The position numbers were made by a program, and so were the translations under genes. Shown here one piece after another: positions 1-9,135 of a stretch of DNA of 52,182 bases; positions within the stretch are counted from its first letter, which is position 1; each line of letters begins with the position of its first letter. The DNA is from Thermoflexia bacterium. GTDB lineage: Bacteria; Chloroflexota; Anaerolineae; B4-G1; DUEL01. The stretch lies in the NCBI GenBank assembly GCA_011192125.1, contig DUEL01000012.1:23622-75803 (forward strand). Direction: 5' to 3'. The notes below the pieces were generated by a model that made no database searches, was not told the DNA's origin, and worked only from the letters and a program-made list of their open reading frames with translations.

Positions 1-78
1 CACCGAAGACGCGGAGGGCACAGAGGGATTGCCGAGGAAGGCAAGGGAGGACTCTGTGTCCTCTGCGCCTTTGTGGTG
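1..78. repeat. REP-like imperfect palindrome, family A (CACAGAG.../...CTCTGTG), copy 1
   Basis: Arms caccgaagacgcggagggcacagag and ctctgtgtcctctgcgcctttgtggtg are imperfectly complementary; similar elements occur at five other positions. Confidence 0.8.
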
Positions 79-98
79 AAAACGGGCGTTCAAAGCGC

Positions 99-126
99 TT
101 GCGTATCGGAGCGAGGCGGGTATACT
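99..126 (+). promoter_or_regulatory. sigma70-type promoter, probably giving a leaderless or near-leaderless transcript
   Basis: TTGCGT-N16-TATACT, with ATG at 136 only 9 nt after the -10 and no SD sequence. Confidence 0.5.
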
Positions 127-135
127 TCAATAGCG

Positions 136-834
136 ATGAGGGACTTCGCTGCGTTGATCTGTGGCCTCCTGGCCGATGAGGAGGCTCTTCATAACCTCCC
201 GTTCGATCGGCAGGAGTTCGAGGACGGCGAGACGATCTTCGAGCGAGGTGACCCCGGGGAGGATCTCTACGTCGTCGAGTCGGGCCAGGTACGTATCTTC
301 ACCGTCGACGAGGGGGGGCGTGAACTGACGTTGAACACGCTGGGCCCGGGGGAGGTGTTCGGCGAATTGGCTCTGCTGGACAGTCGTCCCCGCTCGGCCA
401 GCGCTGCCGCCGTCGGCCCCACCGTTCTCCGCCGTATCGACAGAAGCCACCTGCTCTCCCTGATCCAGTCCTCGCCGGAACTGGCTGCGAGCCTCTACGA
501 CCTCCTGGCTCAGCGCACGCGTCATATGACCGACTACATCGAGCGGTTGGGGCATTGGGCGCGGCTGGTCGCCGAAGGACGGTACGACGAGGCGATGAGG
601 AGCCTTCAGGCCGAGGGCCAGGTCTCCGACCGGGCCCTCGCGGCCGTGGCCGACGCGGTGCGGACGATGGTGCAAGCCGTGCGAGAGCGAGAGGAGCGAC
701 TGAGGCGAGAGGTCGCCCAACTGCGCATCGAGATCGACGAGGTAAAACGAAGGAAGAGCGTGGCGGAGATCACCGATACGGAGTACTTCCGCGACCTGGC
801 CCGTCGGGCACGTGAGTTGCGGAAGCGGATGTAG
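136..834 (+). CDS. cyclic-nucleotide-binding domain protein with HAMP-like segment and C-terminal coiled coil (no HTH)
   Basis: cNMP motifs IFERGDPGEDLYVVESGQV and FGELALLDSRPRSASA; HAMP-like IERLGHWARLVAEGRY...LAAVADAVRTM; tail LRIEIDEVKRRKSVAEITDTEYFRDL. Start placed at ATG 136. Confidence 0.85.
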   Translation: MRDFAALICGLLADEEALHNLPFDRQEFEDGETIFERGDPGEDLYVVESGQVRIFTVDEGGRELTLNTLGPGEVFGELALLDSRPRSASAAAVGPTVLRRIDRSHLLSLIQSSPELAASLYDLLAQRTRHMTDYIERLGHWARLVAEGRYDEAMRSLQAEGQVSDRALAAVADAVRTMVQAVREREERLRREVAQLRIEIDEVKRRKSVAEITDTEYFRDLARRARELRKRM

Positions 835-837
835 CAT

Positions 838-871
838 CCTGCGCTTGCTCCCTTGCGACCTGCTCCCCTGC
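838..871 (+). repeat. degenerate ~8-bp tandem repeat (CYTGCTCC)
   Basis: cctgcg cttgctcc cttgcga cctgctcc cctgc immediately after the stop codon. Confidence 0.5.
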
Positions 872-953
872 GGATGGCCTCTTCCACCAACGACAGCAGG
901 CGGTCGCTCCGCCCAAGTCCTGCAGGTTGTCCACTTGAGATAAGGAGGTGCAA

Positions 954-1727
954 ATGGCTCGGGTCGTCTCCATCCATTCCTTCCGCGGCGGGACCGGCAA
1001 GTCGAACATCACGGCCAACCTGGCTGCCCTTCTCGCGCTCAGAGGAGAACGGGTCGGTGTCATCGACACCGACATCCAGTCCCCCGGCATCCACATCCTC
1101 TTCGGGATGGAGGAGGAGCACATCAGCAAGACGCTCAACGATTACCTCTGGGGGCAGTGCTCCATTGAGGACACCGCCTACGACGTCGGGGAGAGGCTGG
1201 GGCACAGCGCGCTGGAGGCAGCCGGGGGAGCGATCTACCTCATCCCTTCCAGCCTTCGCGCCGGAGAGATCACCCGGATCCTGCGCGAGGGGTACGATGT
1301 GGGCACGCTGAACGAAGGGTTCCGTGACCTCATCCGCGAGTTGAACCTCGACTACCTTCTGATCGATACCCATCCCGGCCTGAACGAGGAGACGCTCCTT
1401 TCCATCGCCATCTCCGACTGCCTGGTGATCGTCCTCCGGCCCGACCAGCAGGACTTTCAGGGCACGGCTGTGACGGTGGATGTGGCCCGGCGGCTGGACG
1501 TCCCGCAGATCATTCTCGTGGTGAACAAGGCTCTCTCTTCCTACGATCTGGATGCCCTCCGCGACCAGGTGGAGTCGACCTACGAATGTCCGGTCGCGGC
1601 GGTGCTCCCCCTCTCCGAGGAGGTAGCCGCGCTCCAGTCGGCCGACCTGGCTGTCATCCGGTTGCCGGACCACTCCTTCTCCAAAGGGATGGAGGCCGTC
1701 GTCCAGGCGATCGAGGCTGGAAAGTAG
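954..1727 (+). CDS. MinD/ParA family ATPase
   Basis: Deviant Walker A SFRGGTGKS, VIDTDIQSPG and LLIDTHPG motifs; SD TAAGGAGG at 941-948. Confidence 0.9.
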   Translation: MARVVSIHSFRGGTGKSNITANLAALLALRGERVGVIDTDIQSPGIHILFGMEEEHISKTLNDYLWGQCSIEDTAYDVGERLGHSALEAAGGAIYLIPSSLRAGEITRILREGYDVGTLNEGFRDLIRELNLDYLLIDTHPGLNEETLLSIAISDCLVIVLRPDQQDFQGTAVTVDVARRLDVPQIILVVNKALSSYDLDALRDQVESTYECPVAAVLPLSEEVAALQSADLAVIRLPDHSFSKGMEAVVQAIEAGK

Positions 1728-1737
1728 GAGCGGAGCG

Positions 1738-1953
1738 ATGGTCTGCCACAAGTGCGGGGAGCCAGCGATCGGCATCTGTCGGTTCTGTGGGCGGGCCGTC
1801 TGCAAGGAGCACCACGTCACCACCTTGCCGACGATCCTGGCGATGTACCTGGGAGACCAGCAGACGCCGAAGGCGATCGTGGTCTCCAACGTTCTCTGGT
1901 GCGGGGAGTGCCAGCCGCAGCCGGAGCCCGTTGAGGTGCCGGAGTTCTACTAG
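1738..1953 (+). CDS. small zinc-finger protein
   Basis: CHKC..CRFC..CKEH..CGEC in 71 aa; SD AGGAG; tight operon spacing. Confidence 0.75.
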   Translation: MVCHKCGEPAIGICRFCGRAVCKEHHVTTLPTILAMYLGDQQTPKAIVVSNVLWCGECQPQPEPVEVPEFY

Positions 1954-1964
1954 GAGGTGGCACG

Positions 1965-2309
1965 ATGGGCATTTTCGACCGCATTCAGGCGGAGGTCGAA
2001 GAACGGGAGCGGAGGGAAGGGATCACACCGTCCGCACTGCTCGACCTCCCGCCGGAGCAGCGCCGCCTGATCAACCACATCACCCGTAGCGGTGAACAGA
2101 CGGCGGCTCAGGCGGCCAGCGCCCTGGACGTGCCGCTGGAAGAGGTGCAGGAGACGCTGGACCTGCTGGCCGAGAAGGGATACCTGGAGCGGGAGAAGCG
2201 GCCGGAGGGTTGGGTGTACCGGACCCGCTTCGGGCGCAAGCGGGCGCGCCAGATCCCCGTCGGCATCTGGTCCGCCCTCGGGGGTGAGAAGGGGGAGCAG
2301 GAGGAATAG
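1965..2309 (+). CDS. winged helix-turn-helix (MarR/TrmB-like) protein
   Basis: TAAQAASALDVPLEEVQETLDLLAEKGYL wHTH pattern; SD AGGAGG. Confidence 0.8.
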   Translation: MGIFDRIQAEVEERERREGITPSALLDLPPEQRRLINHITRSGEQTAAQAASALDVPLEEVQETLDLLAEKGYLEREKRPEGWVYRTRFGRKRARQIPVGIWSALGGEKGEQEE

Positions 2310-2314
2310 GACCG

Positions 2315-3511
2315 GTGGTTCTGGCGGCACCCATCGCCATCGGGATTCCGGCGGCGTTTCTGTTCCTGATCTACACGCTCGACCTGTACGCCTCTCGGAC
2401 CTTCCGCCTGGTCGCGCTCTGCTTCGGCTGGGGGGCGGTCGGCGCGTTCGGCCTGGCGTATGTGATCAACAGTTACGTAGGCTCCCCCCTGCTGGCGCGG
2501 TGGTTCGCCGATCCCTACCTGGGGCTCACGGTCGGCTTCGCGCCGGTGGTGGAGGAGATCACCAAAGCGCTCATCCTCATCTATATCGCGCGCCAGCCGG
2601 AGTTCACCTATTTCGTCGACGGAGCGATCTACGGCTTCGCGTCCGGCATCGGCTTCTCGATCGCGGAGAACTTTCTTTACCTCTCCGCCAACCCCGGTGG
2701 GGGGATCGCGCTGGCGTTGGCGCGGGCCTTTTCGACCTGCCTGATGCACGGCGCGGCCGCTGGGACGGTGGGGGCGGCGGTGGGCCGCTTCCGGTTCCAC
2801 CGGGGGTCCGGCCGGGTGGTAGCTCAGGTGGGCGGTTGGGGAGCCGCCGTCCTCCTCCATGCCCTCTTCAACGGCACGGTCTACACGGGCTCGCTGGGCG
2901 GCGCGGGCGCTCTTCTGATCCCCGTCGCCATCGGGGTGGCGGGGGTCGGCATACTAGTCGTGTTTGTCTTCCTCGGCCTGCAGGAGGAGCGACGCTGGCT
3001 GGCGGAGACCCTCGACCGGAAGGTGGGGGTGACGGCGGCGGAGGTGCGGGCCGCCCAGGCCCTGGGCGACCTGGAGGAGCTCCTCCAGCCCATCGCTGCC
3101 CAGTTCCCGCGGAAGGCGCGGGAGGTCGAACAACTGGTGCTGCTCCAGGCCCAGATCGGCATCAAGCGGAAGGTCCTGCAGCGGACGGAGGATCCGAGGC
3201 TGCGGGAACGACTGGAGCGGAGCATCGATGAGATGCGCGAGGAGATGGAGCGGCTGCGGAAGGGGGTCGGCCTCTACGTGATGAGTTACCTCCGCGCTGT
3301 CTTCCCGGAGGGGGCGATGGACATCTGGAGCCGGATGGAGCAGTTGATCCCGGCGGCCGTCTCTGCGGATGCGGGGGGGTGGGTGAGGACCTTCGCCTCT
3401 CCCGTGGGCGGCACCCCCAGCGGGAGGGACATCTTCGCCAGCATTCAGAAACAGGAGCGTGCAGAAAACCATAGAGACACAGAGAGCACAGAGGAATCTC
3501 CAAGAAGATGA
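2315..3511 (+). CDS. PrsW family intramembrane metalloprotease with cytoplasmic C-terminal helical domain
   Basis: Multiple TM segments with PrsW motifs APVVEEITK, GFSIAENFLY, CLMHG and LLHALFN. Confidence 0.9.
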   Translation: MVLAAPIAIGIPAAFLFLIYTLDLYASRTFRLVALCFGWGAVGAFGLAYVINSYVGSPLLARWFADPYLGLTVGFAPVVEEITKALILIYIARQPEFTYFVDGAIYGFASGIGFSIAENFLYLSANPGGGIALALARAFSTCLMHGAAAGTVGAAVGRFRFHRGSGRVVAQVGGWGAAVLLHALFNGTVYTGSLGGAGALLIPVAIGVAGVGILVVFVFLGLQEERRWLAETLDRKVGVTAAEVRAAQALGDLEELLQPIAAQFPRKAREVEQLVLLQAQIGIKRKVLQRTEDPRLRERLERSIDEMREEMERLRKGVGLYVMSYLRAVFPEGAMDIWSRMEQLIPAAVSADAGGWVRTFASPVGGTPSGRDIFASIQKQERAENHRDTESTEESPRR

Positions 3512-3542
3512 GAAACTCTGTGCCCGCCGTGTCTCCGTGGTG
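3468..3542. repeat. REP-like palindrome family A, copy 2 (overlaps PrsW 3' end)
   Basis: accatagagacacagagagcacagag ... ctctgtgcccgccgtgtctccgtggt; left arm translated as HRDTESTEE. Confidence 0.8.
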
Positions 3543-3562
3543 AAAACCGATGCGGAGGGTGA

Positions 3563-5626
3563 GTGATGAGATCGCGGGGTGTTGGTCTGGCATTGGCTTT
3601 GGCGTTGGGTGTGGCACTGGCCCTCCTGTGGGCGATCGGGATCCAGCAGGAGGTCGCCACCGCCGCCCCCGCTCCCGCCGTCGAGGGGGCGGGAGCATCA
3701 TCGGTGGCCCCTGCTGCCACCACTTACTACGTTGCCCCTGGGGGGGACTGCGGGGTGATGACGCCATGCTTCGCCACCGTCCAGGGGGCCGTGGACGCCG
3801 CGGCTCCTGGCGACATCATCCTGGTTGCCTCGGGGTTCTACACCGGCGTCCAGCAGCGAAACGGCATCACCCAGGTGGTCTACATCTCCAAAGACATCAC
3901 CATCCGCGGCGGGTACACCGTCACCAACTGGAGCACTTCCGATCCCCTGCTCAATGTGACATCGCTAGATAGCGTCGGGTTCGGACGGGTGATGGTGATC
4001 AGTGGCCCCATCACCGTCCACGTCGAAGGTCTTTACATCGCCAACGGCAATGCCTCCGGTCTGGGCGGTGGCCCCGGCGGTCTCGACGGCGCCGGCGGGG
4101 GGGTCTATGTGGTGGGTGCGAACGTCACCATCAGCAACTGCACCTTCAGCGGCAACGTGGCCAGCAGCAACGGGATCGGCAGCGGCGGTGGGATCTATCT
4201 GTGGAACGCGAACGCGAGTCTCGTCAACAACGAGTTTCTGTCCAACATTGCCAGCGGGAACATTCTCTACGCTGGCTATGGTGGGGGGATCGCTATATCG
4301 GGCGGGAGCGTGACCCTGGAGAGGAACTATATCCACTCCAACAGTGCCAACCTGTACAACAGTTCAGGCAGTGGTGGTGGAATCTACATCGATAGCGGGA
4401 GTCCCATCCTGATCAACAATGTCCTCATCGATAACTCCGCCCCTTCCCAGGGGTCCGCCATCTACATCGGCAGCGCCTCCCCTCACTTGCTCCACACCAC
4501 CATCGTCAGCAACACCGGCGGCGACGGGAGTGGCATTTACGCTGCTGGAAGCACGGTGGTTCTCACCAACTCCATCATCGTCAGCCAGATGGTGGGCGTC
4601 ACCACCGAGATCAACACGAACGTCACCCTCAACGGCGTTCTCTGGTACGGCAACGAGCGGAACACAGGGGGGGGAGGGATAGTCACCGTTCAGAACGAGG
4701 TCACTGGCACCCCCGACTTCGACATCGATGGCTACCATATCCTATCCTCCTCGGCTGCGTTGAACGCAGGGGTGAACGCGGGGGTGAGCGGCGACATCGA
4801 CGGTCAGGACCGGCCCTACGGCGCTGCCCCCGATCTGGGGGCGGACGAGTGGTGGCCAACGCCGATCACCGGCGTGCTGATTCTAGGATCGGACATCGGC
4901 TTCGTCGACTTCCCGAACTTCTTTAACGCCCTGGCCCTGCCGTGGGACGCCGCCCTGCCCATCACCTACACCTGGTCGCCAGTGCCGGACGGCGGGCAGG
5001 GAACGGCCTGGGTCACCTACACCTGGTCGACCACCGGCACCTACGTGATCACCCTCACCGCCCAGAACGTCAGCGGCAGCGCGATTACCACGACGACCAT
5101 CACCATCCGCACCGACCTCACAACGACCCTCTACCCCACGGCGGACATCACCCTGATCTATACTGACCCCTGGGGGTTGACGACCACCGTCTACGCCCCG
5201 GCTGGTGCGGTGACCCAGTCGCTGGTCCTGCGATATGTGCCGCAACCCACGTACACCTACAACCTTTCTCCCGACTGGGGTTTCGCCGACCACGCCTTCG
5301 ACCTGGAGGTCCTTTCGAACGAACTTCCCCTCCAGGGCTTTGTGTTCAGCCAGCCGCTGACCATCACGGTCAACTACACCGATAGCGACGTCGCGGGGCT
5401 GGACGAGAACACCCTCCGGCTCTATTTCTGGGACGGCAGCCAGTGGGTGGACGGAGCGACCACCTGTGTTCCCACTTCCACCTACCACCTTTACACGCAG
5501 GAGAACCGGCTTGAACTCGCCATCTGCCACCTGAGCCGGTGGGGGATGATGGGGTTCCGCGCCGGAGATGCGGGGGAGAAGAAGGTGTATCTCTATCTCC
5601 CCATCGTTCTGCGGAACTATCCGTAG
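3563..5626 (+). CDS. secreted right-handed parallel beta-helix protein with PKD-like domain and C-terminal YLPIVLR tail
   Basis: N-terminal signal peptide; TVQGAVDAA, repeated GGG(I/V)Y and N-A motifs, DIDGQDRP..APDLGADE, WSTTGTYVITLTAQN, terminal YLYLPIVLRNYP. Confidence 0.85.
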   Translation: MMRSRGVGLALALALGVALALLWAIGIQQEVATAAPAPAVEGAGASSVAPAATTYYVAPGGDCGVMTPCFATVQGAVDAAAPGDIILVASGFYTGVQQRNGITQVVYISKDITIRGGYTVTNWSTSDPLLNVTSLDSVGFGRVMVISGPITVHVEGLYIANGNASGLGGGPGGLDGAGGGVYVVGANVTISNCTFSGNVASSNGIGSGGGIYLWNANASLVNNEFLSNIASGNILYAGYGGGIAISGGSVTLERNYIHSNSANLYNSSGSGGGIYIDSGSPILINNVLIDNSAPSQGSAIYIGSASPHLLHTTIVSNTGGDGSGIYAAGSTVVLTNSIIVSQMVGVTTEINTNVTLNGVLWYGNERNTGGGGIVTVQNEVTGTPDFDIDGYHILSSSAALNAGVNAGVSGDIDGQDRPYGAAPDLGADEWWPTPITGVLILGSDIGFVDFPNFFNALALPWDAALPITYTWSPVPDGGQGTAWVTYTWSTTGTYVITLTAQNVSGSAITTTTITIRTDLTTTLYPTADITLIYTDPWGLTTTVYAPAGAVTQSLVLRYVPQPTYTYNLSPDWGFADHAFDLEVLSNELPLQGFVFSQPLTITVNYTDSDVAGLDENTLRLYFWDGSQWVDGATTCVPTSTYHLYTQENRLELAICHLSRWGMMGFRAGDAGEKKVYLYLPIVLRNYP

Positions 5627-5667
5627 GGGCAGGCAACCATCCGCCCTACGGCCGTCCGCCCCTACGG
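5621..5667. repeat. GTAG-type REP-like inverted repeat between convergent genes
   Basis: ccgtaggggc (5621-5630) and gcccctacgg (5658-5667) form a perfect 10-bp IR, with an extra gccctacgg at 5643-5651. Confidence 0.7.
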
Positions 5668-8600
5668 GCGGGCTGCCCATTCGCGGATCGCCCGGTGCAC
5701 CGGCACGTCCTCCAGGAAGGTGCGCCGGGCGTCCTCGTCGCTGATGCGGCCTGCCTGCTCCATCAGCAGGGCGTGGGCGGCGGAGACGACCTCCCGGGCC
5801 TTCCCCTGCCGGCCGGCAGCGGTGAAGATCTCCGCGGCGGAGAGATAGACGTGGAGGGGATACTCGATGGAGGCTGGGCCGTGCTCCTCCATCCAGGCCA
5901 GGGCCTCTTCGGCGAGGGACACGGCCTCCTCGATCCGTCCTTGCTTCGCCTCCACCCGGGCCAGCCCGACCCGGTTGTACATCGCGGGTCCTTCCTGGCC
6001 GATCTCAGCGCGGATGCGCGCGGCCTCTCTGTGGGCCTCGGCGGCACCCCCCCATTCCTCTAGGCCCTCCAGCGCCAACCCCAGGTAGGTCAGCGCGTAG
6101 GCTTCCCCCTGCCGGTCGCCGATCTCCCGCTCGAGGGCGAGGGCCTGTTCACAGTAGCGGCGGGCCGCGGCGTCGTCGCCCAGGTCGTGCAGCACCAGGC
6201 CGAGGTTCTCCGCCGTCAGCGCGATCCCTCGCCGGTCGTCGATCTCCCGGAACAGGTCCATCGCCTGCTGGTAGAGGTCGCGGGCCGTCTCGAGGTGGCC
6301 CAGGGAGTGGTGGACGCTGCCCAGGTTACTCAGCGCCTGGACCTCGTTCCGCCGATCGCCGAGGGTCCGATAGACGGAGAGCACCTGCTCACCCAGAGCT
6401 TTGCAGCGGGAGAAGTCCCCTAGGGCGTGATAGACGCCCGCGAGATTCCCAAGGGTGATCGCCTCCCCGCGCCGGTCGCCCAACTCCCGGCGGATCGTCA
6501 GCGCCGCCTCCAACTGCTCGCGGGCCCCGTCGAAATCGCTCAAGAAGTAGAGGATGGTCCCGATGTTGTGGAGACAGGTCGCCTCGCCCGCCCGGTCCCC
6601 GTGCTCCCGGGCCAGCGCCAGCGCTGCCTCCAGTCGCTCGCGCGCCTCTTCGAAGGCCCCCTGCCGCCAGAGCGCCCGGCCCCACGCGATCAGCCCCTCG
6701 GTCTTGCGGCGAACGTCCCCCGCCTGCTCCGCCAGACCGACCGTTTCCTGAGCCGCGGAGACGGCGGCGGGGAACTCGCTGATCGCCTCGTAGTAGGCTG
6801 CCCAGCGCAGCGCGACCTCTGCCTGTCGATCCAGATCGCCCATCTCTCGGGCCAGCGAGGTCAGCGCCTCCAGGTCGGCGGCCTGGGCTTCGCGCTGTCC
6901 GGTCAGCCGGTACACCCCCTCCCGGCCCAGCAGGAGGTGATACCGCTGCTCCTGTAGCCACGTCGGGTCCGCCTCCACCCGGGGCAGCAGGTCCAGCGCG
7001 TGGCTGAAGTAGGCGATGGCGTCGGCGTTGGCGAACTGGCCTGCAGCCTGCTCTCCCGCTTTTCGAAGGTAGATGACGGCCTTCTTCAGGACGTTCCCCT
7101 GCTCGTAGTGGTGGGCGATGAGGGAGAAGAAGGAAGGGATGCTGCCCGCACGCTGTTCCAGCCACTCGGCCACCCGGGCGTGGACGGGCCGACGGACCCG
7201 TCTGGGCAGGCTTTCGTAGGCCACGTCCCGGGCCAGGCTGTGGTGGAAGTGCCACTCCTCCTCATCGGCGATGGTGGATTCTCCCGGCCGGTATACCCAT
7301 CCGCCGCTTTCAAGCCGGCCGAGAGCCTCCACGACCGCTGACGTTTCTGTGCCCTCTTCGATCTTGCTCAGGACGCCGCGCCAGAAGGTCCGGCCGACGA
7401 TGGCCGCCCGTTGCAGGACGTACTTGTCGAGGGAGGGCAGCCGGTCGAGGCGGGCGGCGATGACGCCCTGGACCGTGCCCGGCACCTGGATCTGGGTCAC
7501 GGCGCGGGTGACCTGCCACCGGCCGGTCGCCGGATCGCGGTTCAGTACCCCCTCCTCGATCAGCGAACGGAGGATCTCTTCCAGAAAGAATGGGTTACCC
7601 TGAGCGCGGTCCAGCAGCAGGTCCAGCAGGTCCTCGGGGAGGTCGGATTCGTCGAGCAGCCGGGCGACCAGGGTGCCCGAGGCCTCAGCGTCGAGGGGAC
7701 GGAGTAGGAGCCGTTGGCCCGGAGGTTGGGACAGGCAGGTAAGGAGCCTCCCGTAGGCCGAATCCTCTTCCTCCGGTCGGCTGAGGGCGAGCAGGAAGCA
7801 GCCGCCACCGGTGGGCCAGATTCGCCCCGCCCGGTTGACCAGCCACTCTAGGAAGGAGAGGGAAAGGGCATCGGCCCAGTGGAGGTCCTCCACCACCAGC
7901 AGCAGAGGGTTCTCCCTCGCCGCGGCGTGAAGGATCCGCTCGAGCGAGAGGAACGTCCGATCGCGTCGCTGTTCGGGGTCGAGGCCGGCCATCGGGTCCG
8001 GGTCCAACGGGATCCCCAGCACGCCGGAGACCGAGCCGAGCCAGTAGCGGAGTTCCTCCCCCTCGACGTCCGGTGCCAGCCTCTGCAGTTCCGCCGCCAG
8101 CCGCTCCGTCTGCCCCTCCCGGTCGGCCCCCAGGTCGAAGAGGCCGCCGAGGAGGTCGGCAAGGAGCGCGTAGGGGGTGTTCTGGGTGTGGGCGAAGCAG
8201 CGACCGAGGAGCGTCCTCGCCATCGGATAGGTCCGCGCCACCCAGGCGATGAACTCCCGCCGCAGCCGCGTCTTGCCAACCCCCGCCTCGCCCACCACCG
8301 TCACCGTCTGCCAGCGCTCTCCGGTGAGCAGTTGATGGAAAGCCGTCTGGAGGGTCCTCAGTTCCTCCTCCCGGCCCACCATCGGTGCCTGGAGGCCGGG
8401 AACCCCGCGGGTGGGGCCGCGCCGCGCCTTCTCACCGACGACCACGTAGACGGTGATCGGTTCCGCCTTGCCCTTCACGCGGATCTGTCGGGGCGGCTCA
8501 AAGTCGAACAGGGCGTGGAGGGGGCGGGCCGTCTCCGCGCTGATCATCACGCGGCCCGGCGGGCATGCCGACTCCAGCCGTGAGGCCAGGTTGACCGTGT

Positions 8601-9135
8601 CGCCCACGATAGCGAAGTCCCGATCAGCCCGGCCCTCCAGGGCCCCGTACATCACCAACCCCGTGTTGACCCCGATGCGCATCGTCAGGCGGAAGCCCCG
8701 CTCCCGCTCCAACTCCTCGTTGAACGATTCGAGGGCCTCCTGCATCGCCAGCGCGGCCCGCACGGCCATCTCCTCGTGGTTCTCCAGCGCTTTGGGCGCG
8801 CCGAAGATGGCGAGGATAGCGTCGCCGATGTACTTCTCAATGGTCCCGCCGTACCGGAGGATGGCCGGGTTCATCCGCTGGAAGTAGGCGTCCATCACGG
8901 CGGTGACGTCCTCGGGGTCCATCTTCTCCGACATCGCGGTGAAGCCAGCGAGGTCGGAGAAGAGGACGGTGACGCGTTTCCGTTCCTCGGAGGGAGGGGC
9001 GGCGCGGGTCAGGGCGAGGAGCCGTTCGCGCAGCGGGGCGAGGGCCGCCTCGACGACGGCGTCCCCCAGGGTGGCCCGTTGGGCCTCCAGGGCAGCGATC
9101 GCGGTGCGAAGTTGTTCGATCTCCTCGGCAGACAT
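5662..9135 (-). CDS. class III adenylate/guanylate cyclase - STAND/AAA ATPase - TPR multidomain protein
   Basis: VLFSDLAGFT, KYIGDA and DFAIVGDTVNLASRLE cyclase motifs; Walker A GEAGVGKT; Walker B LLVVEDLHWAD; GNPFFLEE; many C-terminal TPR-like repeats. Confidence 0.92.
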   Translation of the reverse strand: MSAEEIEQLRTAIAALEAQRATLGDAVVEAALAPLRERLLALTRAAPPSEERKRVTVLFSDLAGFTAMSEKMDPEDVTAVMDAYFQRMNPAILRYGGTIEKYIGDAILAIFGAPKALENHEEMAVRAALAMQEALESFNEELERERGFRLTMRIGVNTGLVMYGALEGRADRDFAIVGDTVNLASRLESACPPGRVMISAETARPLHALFDFEPPRQIRVKGKAEPITVYVVVGEKARRGPTRGVPGLQAPMVGREEELRTLQTAFHQLLTGERWQTVTVVGEAGVGKTRLRREFIAWVARTYPMARTLLGRCFAHTQNTPYALLADLLGGLFDLGADREGQTERLAAELQRLAPDVEGEELRYWLGSVSGVLGIPLDPDPMAGLDPEQRRDRTFLSLERILHAAARENPLLLVVEDLHWADALSLSFLEWLVNRAGRIWPTGGGCFLLALSRPEEEDSAYGRLLTCLSQPPGQRLLLRPLDAEASGTLVARLLDESDLPEDLLDLLLDRAQGNPFFLEEILRSLIEEGVLNRDPATGRWQVTRAVTQIQVPGTVQGVIAARLDRLPSLDKYVLQRAAIVGRTFWRGVLSKIEEGTETSAVVEALGRLESGGWVYRPGESTIADEEEWHFHHSLARDVAYESLPRRVRRPVHARVAEWLEQRAGSIPSFFSLIAHHYEQGNVLKKAVIYLRKAGEQAAGQFANADAIAYFSHALDLLPRVEADPTWLQEQRYHLLLGREGVYRLTGQREAQAADLEALTSLAREMGDLDRQAEVALRWAAYYEAISEFPAAVSAAQETVGLAEQAGDVRRKTEGLIAWGRALWRQGAFEEARERLEAALALAREHGDRAGEATCLHNIGTILYFLSDFDGAREQLEAALTIRRELGDRRGEAITLGNLAGVYHALGDFSRCKALGEQVLSVYRTLGDRRNEVQALSNLGSVHHSLGHLETARDLYQQAMDLFREIDDRRGIALTAENLGLVLHDLGDDAAARRYCEQALALEREIGDRQGEAYALTYLGLALEGLEEWGGAAEAHREAARIRAEIGQEGPAMYNRVGLARVEAKQGRIEEAVSLAEEALAWMEEHGPASIEYPLHVYLSAAEIFTAAGRQGKAREVVSAAHALLMEQAGRISDEDARRTFLEDVPVHRAIREWAARP

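Follow-up and report, generated by a model that had tools for sequence, protein, structure and literature searches.

Partners of the MinE and ParB type carry a basic peptide at the N-terminus and position cargo on the membrane or on DNA, according to the accessible part of PMC10241942, and MinE is described as acting through the membrane-targeting helix of MinD together with residues K11, N45 and D152 (PMC6803595, in part). In the pairs MinD-MinE, ParA-ParB and McdA-McdB, as far as the available text of these two sources goes, the gene of a MinD-fold deviant Walker A ATPase lies beside that of a partner with a short charged helix-forming segment, and the same arrangement is found at the locus described here. 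BcsR-BcsQ of E. coli cellulose secretion is alike in other respects: BcsQ, a SIMIBI ATPase that is soluble, has Arg where the trans-lysine would stand, and its partner has a small helical domain and works with a membrane enzyme system (excerpts of PMC7840130). In CapA-CapB, and in the fused Wzc, a P-loop enzyme related to MinD is activated by the C-terminal tail of an upstream protein, about 30 residues long and containing a Phe that is essential, split and fused forms both being natural (accessible portion of PMC2422856). Conservons, the actinobacterial G protein systems, follow a similar logic, in that a single operon supplies a sensor, the dedicated NTPase switch to which it is wired and small accessory proteins (PMC13343842 and PMC13621833, each in part).

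The locus lies at the start of the window, by which is meant the whole stretch of 52,182 nucleotides that was analysed. It pairs a cyclic-nucleotide-binding protein (P0001), which ends in a short output tail, with a MinD-like ATPase (P0002), and it departs from each of these known systems in a defining property. The MinE, ParB and McdB peptides are N-terminal, basic and disordered in the text available from PMC10241942, whereas the tail is C-terminal and was helical in both AF2 models; unlike those partners, it stands behind HAMP and sensor domains and is common to many sensors. What it does have in common with them is the linkage of the partner gene to the gene of an A/D ATPase. BcsQ is reported, in the excerpts of PMC7840130, to be without the catalytic Asp and the cis Lys, whereas P0002 keeps both; the same excerpts give BcsR no sensor domains, and no bcs genes are present at the P0002 locus. 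The fold that is completed by the CapA tail is circularly permuted (PMC2422856, in part), whereas the P0002-family ATPase has the full MinD fold, and neither the tyrosine cluster nor the polysaccharide co-polymerase of the BY-kinases occurs at the C-terminus of P0002 or among its neighbours. F218 of the tail might be the analogue of CapA F221. The histidine-kinase-like sensor, roadblock protein and Ras-like GTPase that conservons use in the accessible parts of PMC13343842 and PMC13621833 are all missing from the P0001 operon. New here would be the redeployment of the ATPase-plus-partner-segment arrangement as a sensor output.

The sensor protein P0001

P0001 is a cNMP-HAMP-tail protein of 232 amino acids encoded at 136..834 (+ strand), its probable start codon having been assigned from relatives of 232 residues. 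Residues 26-112 (211..471, +) form a cyclic-nucleotide-binding domain of CRP-like fold (Pfam PF00027 cNMP_binding, E 1.3e-27), for which the best Foldseek matches were CRP and GlxR. An intact phosphate-binding cassette had been described in an earlier note as preceding the HAMP-like helix pair; it is indeed intact and lies upstream of the region 535-834 quoted there, at 361..402 (+), where it comprises residues G76-S89 (GE...PRSAS; GELALLDSRPRSAS). Cassette residues G76, E77, A79, D82 and R86 were invariant in all 29 of the 29 aligned cNMP-tail proteins.

The domain is followed by a divergent cytoplasmic HAMP-like helix pair (residues 131-182; 526..681, +), assigned from hhalign and the AF2 helices, and by a coiled-coil signalling helix, M178-R197 (667..726, +), with a conserved R185-E186-x-x-L189, assigned from alignments and AF2. 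This part of the earlier description is in line with profile comparison and predicted structure; by Pfam scan the linker was below HAMP detection. The profile of the P0001-family linker matched that of 14 Pfam-HAMP-positive segments from tail proteins at 93.7% (hhalign, E 2e-7), and P0001 taken alone among the 29 matched the HAMP-segment profile with an E value of 0.001.

The output tail, L196-M232 (LRIEID ... VAEIT.T.YF..L...A..LR; 721..831, +), contains the invariant F218 and is predicted to be an ATPase docking module; its letters had been quoted exactly. The AF2 monomer model of P0001 has helices at 114-146, 150-161, 166-213 and 216-231, which make an all-helical rod after the cNMP domain, and in this model the tail prolongs one long helix, the tail-equivalent stretch having a pLDDT of 66-75. 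As had been stated before, the protein has no kinase, cyclase or HTH output by Pfam or NCBIfam: cNMP_binding was the sole Pfam family above threshold, and matches to the NCBIfam CRP/FNR models ended at about residue 146, far under the cut-offs. P0001 resembles the CRP/FNR transcription factors in its cNMP domain, cassette and C-helix, whereas in place of their C-terminal HTH it has the HAMP-like linker, the coiled coil and the tail.

The output tail as a protein family

With P0001 residues 175-232 as query, 247 of 313 candidates, all of lengths 127-406, were matched at E<=1e-3, and judged from these sequence matches the conservation of the tail is far above chance. Among the 120 matches listed, 95 carried a receiver domain, nine HAMP, eight cNMP and seven GAF, while one was without a family. 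A 76-row tail profile searched against 1.84 billion representatives yielded 2,494 clusters (50% identity) at E<=1e-3 and 1,545 at E<=1e-10, so that the tail is conserved, as the earlier proposal needed it to be. Among the 150 best representatives, 135 have no more than 25 residues between the end of the tail and the C-terminus. Its portability was likewise borne out, since it was found behind REC, GAF, Cache, CHASE2, PAS and cNMP sensors.

Thirty-nine of the 124 distinct tail proteins from the collected loci were scanned for families, and HAMP, dCache, GAF, REC, cNMP, CHASE2, 4HB and PrsW-cNMP were recovered. HisKA was present in two of the 39, and none of the 39 had a kinase catalytic (HATPase), GGDEF, cyclase or HTH domain at E<=1e-5. 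The most conserved tail positions over the 76 rows, in P0001 numbering, were F218 (100%), D201, V209 and I212 (97% each), L221 (96%), R229 (95%) and I200 (92%). Residues 196-232 have a net charge of +4.

Scans of the 76 tails against Pfam, NCBIfam and the PDB returned no family, only scattered coiled-coil matches with at most 3 of the 76 members per family. The ESM Atlas, with the tail, gave unnamed clusters at 0.90-0.94; below 0.9 there were leads only, including STAS proteins. When the fusion model described below was submitted to Foldseek and VIA-align, the ATPase was essentially alone in being aligned, no listed chain spanning the tail or showing a CapA-like extension; this missing match does not make the fold of the tail new. 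Up to seven tail genes occur per genome. One or more further copies of the last tail helix follow, behind flexible linkers, in cyanobacterial loci (the loci with such repeats being L096, L098, L100, L124, L135, L137 and L141) and in several unnamed representatives (P0126, P0127, P0137); binding motifs are often duplicated.

The tail is a real and widespread output module that has so far lacked annotation, and it is linked with a MinD-like ATPase of its own. Literature titles and abstract openings contained no description of tail-ATPase signalling, subscription papers and supplementary comparative-genomics tables being mostly outside this scope, and the signalling route through tail and ATPase appears to be undescribed.

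The MinD-like ATPase P0002

The gene of P0002 (257 amino acids; 954..1727, +) starts 120 bp downstream of the P0001 gene, behind a Shine-Dalgarno-like AAGGAGG at 942..948 (+). Its Walker A motif, HSFRGGTGKS, contains the SFRGGTGKS by which the adjacent MinD-like gene had been recognised, and D38 and D40 are kept; K16, D38 and D40 were invariant in 76 of 76 ATPase rows. The closest named relatives are titled Chloroflexi or Anaerolineales. The ATPase of a relative superimposed on P. furiosus MinD with a Z score of 27.8 and an rmsd of 2.3 over 235 residues.

Based on alignment with the canonical MinD of the same genome, K11 is replaced by R11, N45 by G45 and D152 by G170, while the cis lysine and D40 are retained in the P0002 family. 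P0002 has no membrane-targeting helix and ends about 26 residues before canonical MinD, the family length being 247-263, and it scored 95.9 and 51.4 bits in NCBIfam against cut-offs of 201.75 and 212.9. From the arginine at position 11, the glycines at the N45 and D152 positions and the missing membrane helix, it follows that P0002 is not the cell-division MinD, and a literal MinE mechanism for the tail on P0002 is unlikely. No MinC, MinE or ParB family was found by Pfam or NCBIfam among the genes beside P0002 at the locus. Across the ATPase family the mean net charge is -10, with values from -18 to -3, which would argue against nucleoid binding; with the missing membrane helix, this strong acidity makes a soluble switch likelier than a positioning oscillator.

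It could still be supposed that a ParA/MinD-type ATPase places or clusters the sensors, that the tail is a cargo tag stimulating hydrolysis in the manner of MinE, ParB or McdB, and that the signal exits by another way. The MinD fold with its D40 and cis lysine would suit such a role, A/D ATPases normally meet a partner peptide (PMC10241942, accessible part), the charges of tail (+4) and ATPase are opposite, 94% of the 72 free tails compared retain R229, and the winged-helix protein encoded nearby could provide a link to DNA. However, an ATPase without a membrane helix and with an acidic surface has no evident matrix to work on, and the equivalents of N45 and D152 are glycines. The sensors are without other output, and a HAMP and coiled coil that run into the tail have the layout of a signal transmitter; the covalent sensor-ATPase fusions described below suit a switch better than a cargo cycle. 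Positioning is therefore regarded as improbable, even though it is the strongest of the competing explanations. The earlier suggestion of a docking or activating motif like those of MinE and ParB is consistent with the linkage, the fusions and the predicted packing as far as docking goes, but the likeness to MinE and ParB is weakened by the C-terminal place of the tail behind HAMP and by an ATPase that has neither K11, N45, D152 nor the membrane helix.

Second ATPase copies lie near the first at L066:13588-14694, L106:14452-15084, L144:9278-10153, L053 and L054. Some of these second copies have an altered Walker A (RGGTGRS, RRGTGKT, MRGTGKS), suggesting, from their sequences, heterodimers of active and inactive subunits.

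Co-occurrence and neighbourhood of tail and ATPase

Among 151 genomes of the same phylum, 27 had the tail, 26 the ATPase and 26 both; the corresponding numbers were 16, 15 and 15 for 101 genomes around a Nostoc genome, and 6, 6 and 6 for 251 genomes around a Solirubrobacterales genome. With the three centre genomes left out, as they were picked for having the system, 500 genomes from three phyla gave 44 with both, two with the tail only, none with the ATPase only and 454 with neither; kin are not independent in these and the locus counts, so that significance is overstated, but the pattern nonetheless recurs in three phyla. One of the tail-only cases lies about 630 bp from a contig end. A mirror-tree correlation (r 0.43 against a permutation maximum of 0.21) was discarded, being explained by shared ancestry.

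Linkage was gauged from the ATPase side and by whole-genome searches. In 79 loci chosen by the ATPase alone, a tail was found within 5 kb in 61 and not in the other 18; in 41 it was within 300 bp, 40 of these tails being upstream on the same strand. Of loci with full flanks, 35 of 44 have a tail. The earlier statement that similar tails occur on HAMP proteins whose genes adjoin this MinD subfamily proved correct in these ATPase-selected loci. Seen from the tail, linkage was looser: 29 of 54 tails in the own-phylum sample were within 5 kb of an ATPase and 25 were not, and some tails in a one-contig genome are about 1 Mb or more away, so that there are many orphan tails, which would act in trans. 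In the genome of the window the single tail adjoins P0002 and none of the other MinD/ParA matches. The neighbourhood listing runs to L132, while L133-L140 were included in the counts of tail proximity, winged-helix genes, effectors and cNMP loci.

Three of four plasmid loci checked, among 14 matches, carry tails. A Streptomyces plasmid relative (L142, 39% identity) has no tail within 7 kb and stands within a SpoIIE/STAS cluster. The ATPase subfamily lies beside SpoIIE phosphatase/STAS partner-switching genes in L142, in L144 (a Deinococcus plasmid) and in L051, L052 and L107, and glycogen genes are also present in L142 and L144.

Natural fusions and structure prediction

Among ATPase proteins of 451-2000 amino acids, the tail was N-terminal to the ATPase in 90 of 110 by a script rule, P0383 among these 90 looking like a mis-called frame; the remaining 20 included several degenerate PAS fusions under the threshold and two PrsW fusions. 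Four sensor architectures were represented (cNMP, HisKA-REC, dCache and PAS). A quick tree built from 138 rows, with REC and PAS fusions subsampled, kept the four apart, and the branches leading to the dCache and PAS groups each had full support; this suggests that tail and ATPase were joined at least four times, an estimate rather than a tested count. The junction of the cNMP-type fusions retains a ribosome-binding site and a Met before the ATPase, so that these fusions may be simple stop-codon losses, and fused and free ATPase may both be made from such loci. At L022:6784-9075, L023:616-3659 and L024:562-2805, one or two tandem cNMP-HAMP-tail paralogues are followed by one fused in frame to the ATPase.

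R229, kept in most free tails, is found in only 37% of 57 fused REC, Cache and PAS tails, whereas F218 is invariant in the fused tails too. This difference favours docking over an arginine finger, a role made less plausible for R229 by the fact that most fused tails have lost it.

The tail-linker-ATPase part of the L022 protein was modelled by AF2 with a pTM of 0.89 and a mean pLDDT of 91, tail residues 21-50 reaching 92-96; the model is of a relative's tethered monomer, without ATP, second subunit or unrelated control, and the rise in pLDDT over the P0001 model is uncontrolled for alignment depth (138 rows against 29). In it the long helix breaks at residues 18-24, equivalent to LRIEID, and is followed by helices 25-36 and 39-62. 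A pTM of about 0.73-0.80 would be expected of an unplaced tail, and since the value obtained exceeds this the model places the tail on the ATPase. Together with the co-occurrence, the neighbourhood and the fusions, this prediction makes it likely that the tail docks on the ATPase.

A predicted helix-turn-helix on a SIMIBI ATPase also recalls BcsR, whose C-terminal V-shaped helical domain stitches the BcsQ dimer, BcsQ having Arg at the signature lysine (PMC7840130, in part). Membrane partners (PrsW, permease-like, TLC/MFS) recur near the ATPase, and the tail might accordingly be pictured as a constitutive BcsR-like stabiliser, or as an anchor of the ATP-bound ATPase with a membrane enzyme or transporter, the ATPase regulating the sensor or assembling a complex. 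We consider this somewhat less probable than positioning. A mere stabiliser needs neither interchangeable REC, GAF, Cache, PAS and cNMP inputs nor up to seven tail genes in a genome, and the tail matches neither BcsR nor any PDB chain in sequence.

Neighbouring genes

Downstream of P0002, on the same strand, follow a zinc-finger-like small Cys/His protein (P0003; 1738..1953, +), which is an operon member in 38 of 61 Chloroflexota-titled loci, a winged-helix protein (P0004; 1965..2309, +), a candidate partner on the effector side, and a PrsW-family intramembrane protease with a conserved cytoplasmic C-terminal domain (P0005; 2315..3511, +), a candidate output. A convergent gene at 5662..9135 (- strand) encodes a class III nucleotide cyclase-AAA-TPR protein, the likely source of cyclic nucleotide. 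By its motifs, this cyclase keeps both metal-binding aspartates and the adenine-specifying lysine, which makes cAMP the likely ligand, and it likely supplies the input of P0001. Candidates for the output side are the winged-helix and PrsW genes. A scan of window positions 1-3600 for sigma-70 promoters and terminators yielded none that passed.

The 28 distinct cNMP-tail loci contained the ATPase in 27, the winged-helix gene in 26, a class III cyclase in 24, PrsW in 23 and an ECF sigma factor in nine, and the 76 other ATPase loci contained winged-helix in 41, cyclase in 26, PrsW in eight and ECF sigma in two, the loci in this comparison being relatives and not independent. The 61 Chloroflexota-titled loci had winged-helix in 52, zinc finger in 38, cyclase in 38, PrsW in 24, TLC/MFS in 22 and permease-like proteins in eight, and few of these effector candidates were found in non-Chloroflexota loci. 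The partners of the ATPase in other lineages include a permease-like protein, TLC/MFS transporters, and DUF7005 or SpoIIE genes. A single universal effector was ruled out, none being common to all lineages.

Elsewhere the winged-helix domain turns up within the cytoplasmic insert of a permease-like protein that has 12 TM segments and matches no NCBIfam model, as the N-terminal part of a cNMP protein, and fused behind the ATPase (L042:4364-7234, L089:10303-11670, L114:2586-4334, P0348). PrsW is fused to the ATPase in P0301 and P0339 and to a cNMP-tail protein in L058.

These neighbours bear on the possibility that tail and ATPase make no contact, the tail being an oligomerisation end-cap or a ligand of the winged-helix protein or the cyclase, and the ATPase merely co-inherited in the pathway. 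In 47 of 79 loci no more than 1.5 kb separates the winged-helix gene from the ATPase gene, the tail simply prolongs a helix in the prediction for P0001 alone, and the 25 of 54 tails away from any ATPase would fit. Yet no winged-helix gene was found in the fetched stretches of clearly cyanobacterial loci, while tail and ATPase are paired in three phyla; moreover, the fusions join the tail directly to the ATPase, and the pTM of the L022 model requires a tail placed on it. We therefore hold it to be the least probable of the explanations, and very unlikely.

Several other features were observed around the locus. Upstream of the window, on the same strand, L001:12308-15801 encodes an ECF sigma factor, a 148-aa two-helix membrane protein and a TolB/PD40-like propeller; the membrane protein has no NCBIfam match and in our view resembles an anti-sigma factor, a possible substrate of PrsW. 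On the opposite strand (L001:10993-12168, -) lies a receiver domain fused to an ATPase that we take to be CpaE/TadZ-like and that is unrelated to the tail system. An intergenic repeat at window positions 1-85 and 3475-3547, presumably REP-like, has 99 BLAST matches in the genome, and one of its copies extends into the 3' end of the PrsW gene. The gene that separates PrsW from the cyclase (3563-5626, +) encodes a secreted-looking PKD-domain protein of 687 amino acids, which did not recur as an operon member in the neighbourhoods listed. A TLC/MFS transporter and radical-SAM genes, often with D-Ala-D-Ala-ligase-like genes, stand either before or after the tail-ATPase pair in L066, L071, L075, L076, L078, L079, L081, L090, L093 and L131, the radical-SAM proteins being presumably KamA-like; GNAT replaces the TLC/MFS-linked genes in other loci.

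Proposed mechanism

The preferred reading, to which a probability of about 0.62 is given, is that the tail is a conserved C-terminal module of many sensors which docks on the ATPase and, once the sensor has been triggered, would shift that ATPase to another nucleotide or dimer state. P0001 would dimerise like CRP, and a cyclic nucleotide, likely cAMP of the neighbouring cyclase, would bind the cassette and shift the C-helix. The HAMP and coiled coil would relay the change to the tail, exposing or hiding it. On binding, the long helix is predicted to open at LRIEID and its remainder to form a helix-turn-helix against the ATPase, where I200, D201, V209, I212, F218 and L221 are the likely contact or core residues. 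Binding of the tail would alter the nucleotide or dimer state of the soluble ATPase switch, which may then control effectors that differ between lineages: the winged-helix/zinc-finger pair and PrsW at this locus, a permease-like protein or TLC/MFS transporter in others.

Whether the tail stimulates hydrolysis or stabilises or inhibits the ATPase stands at about even odds; by analogy, an action like that of BcsR and BcsE on BcsQ would fit equally well as stimulation. We also propose, more tentatively and at somewhat less than an even chance, a general class of signal transduction in which interchangeable sensors share one transmitter tail that gates a SIMIBI ATPase much as CheA is gated by the tips of chemoreceptors. 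In such a class the tail would switch between a coiled-coil and an ATPase-bound state, and at this locus cAMP would cause the ECF sigma factor encoded upstream to be released through PrsW.

Significance

The system is tractable, consisting of a peptide of 37 residues and a soluble protein of 257 residues, and the pair is present in the cultured Nostoc punctiforme (NPUN_RS35445-35450). If the docking is confirmed, a defined output could be assigned to about 2,500 clusters whose present annotation goes no further than 'response regulator', 'HAMP domain protein' or 'cNMP-binding protein', and a partner to a ParA/MinD subfamily that is so far an orphan in Chloroflexota, cyanobacteria, Actinomycetota and others. 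The MinD-fold ATPase would then be a dedicated output switch of modular sensors and not a positioning motor.
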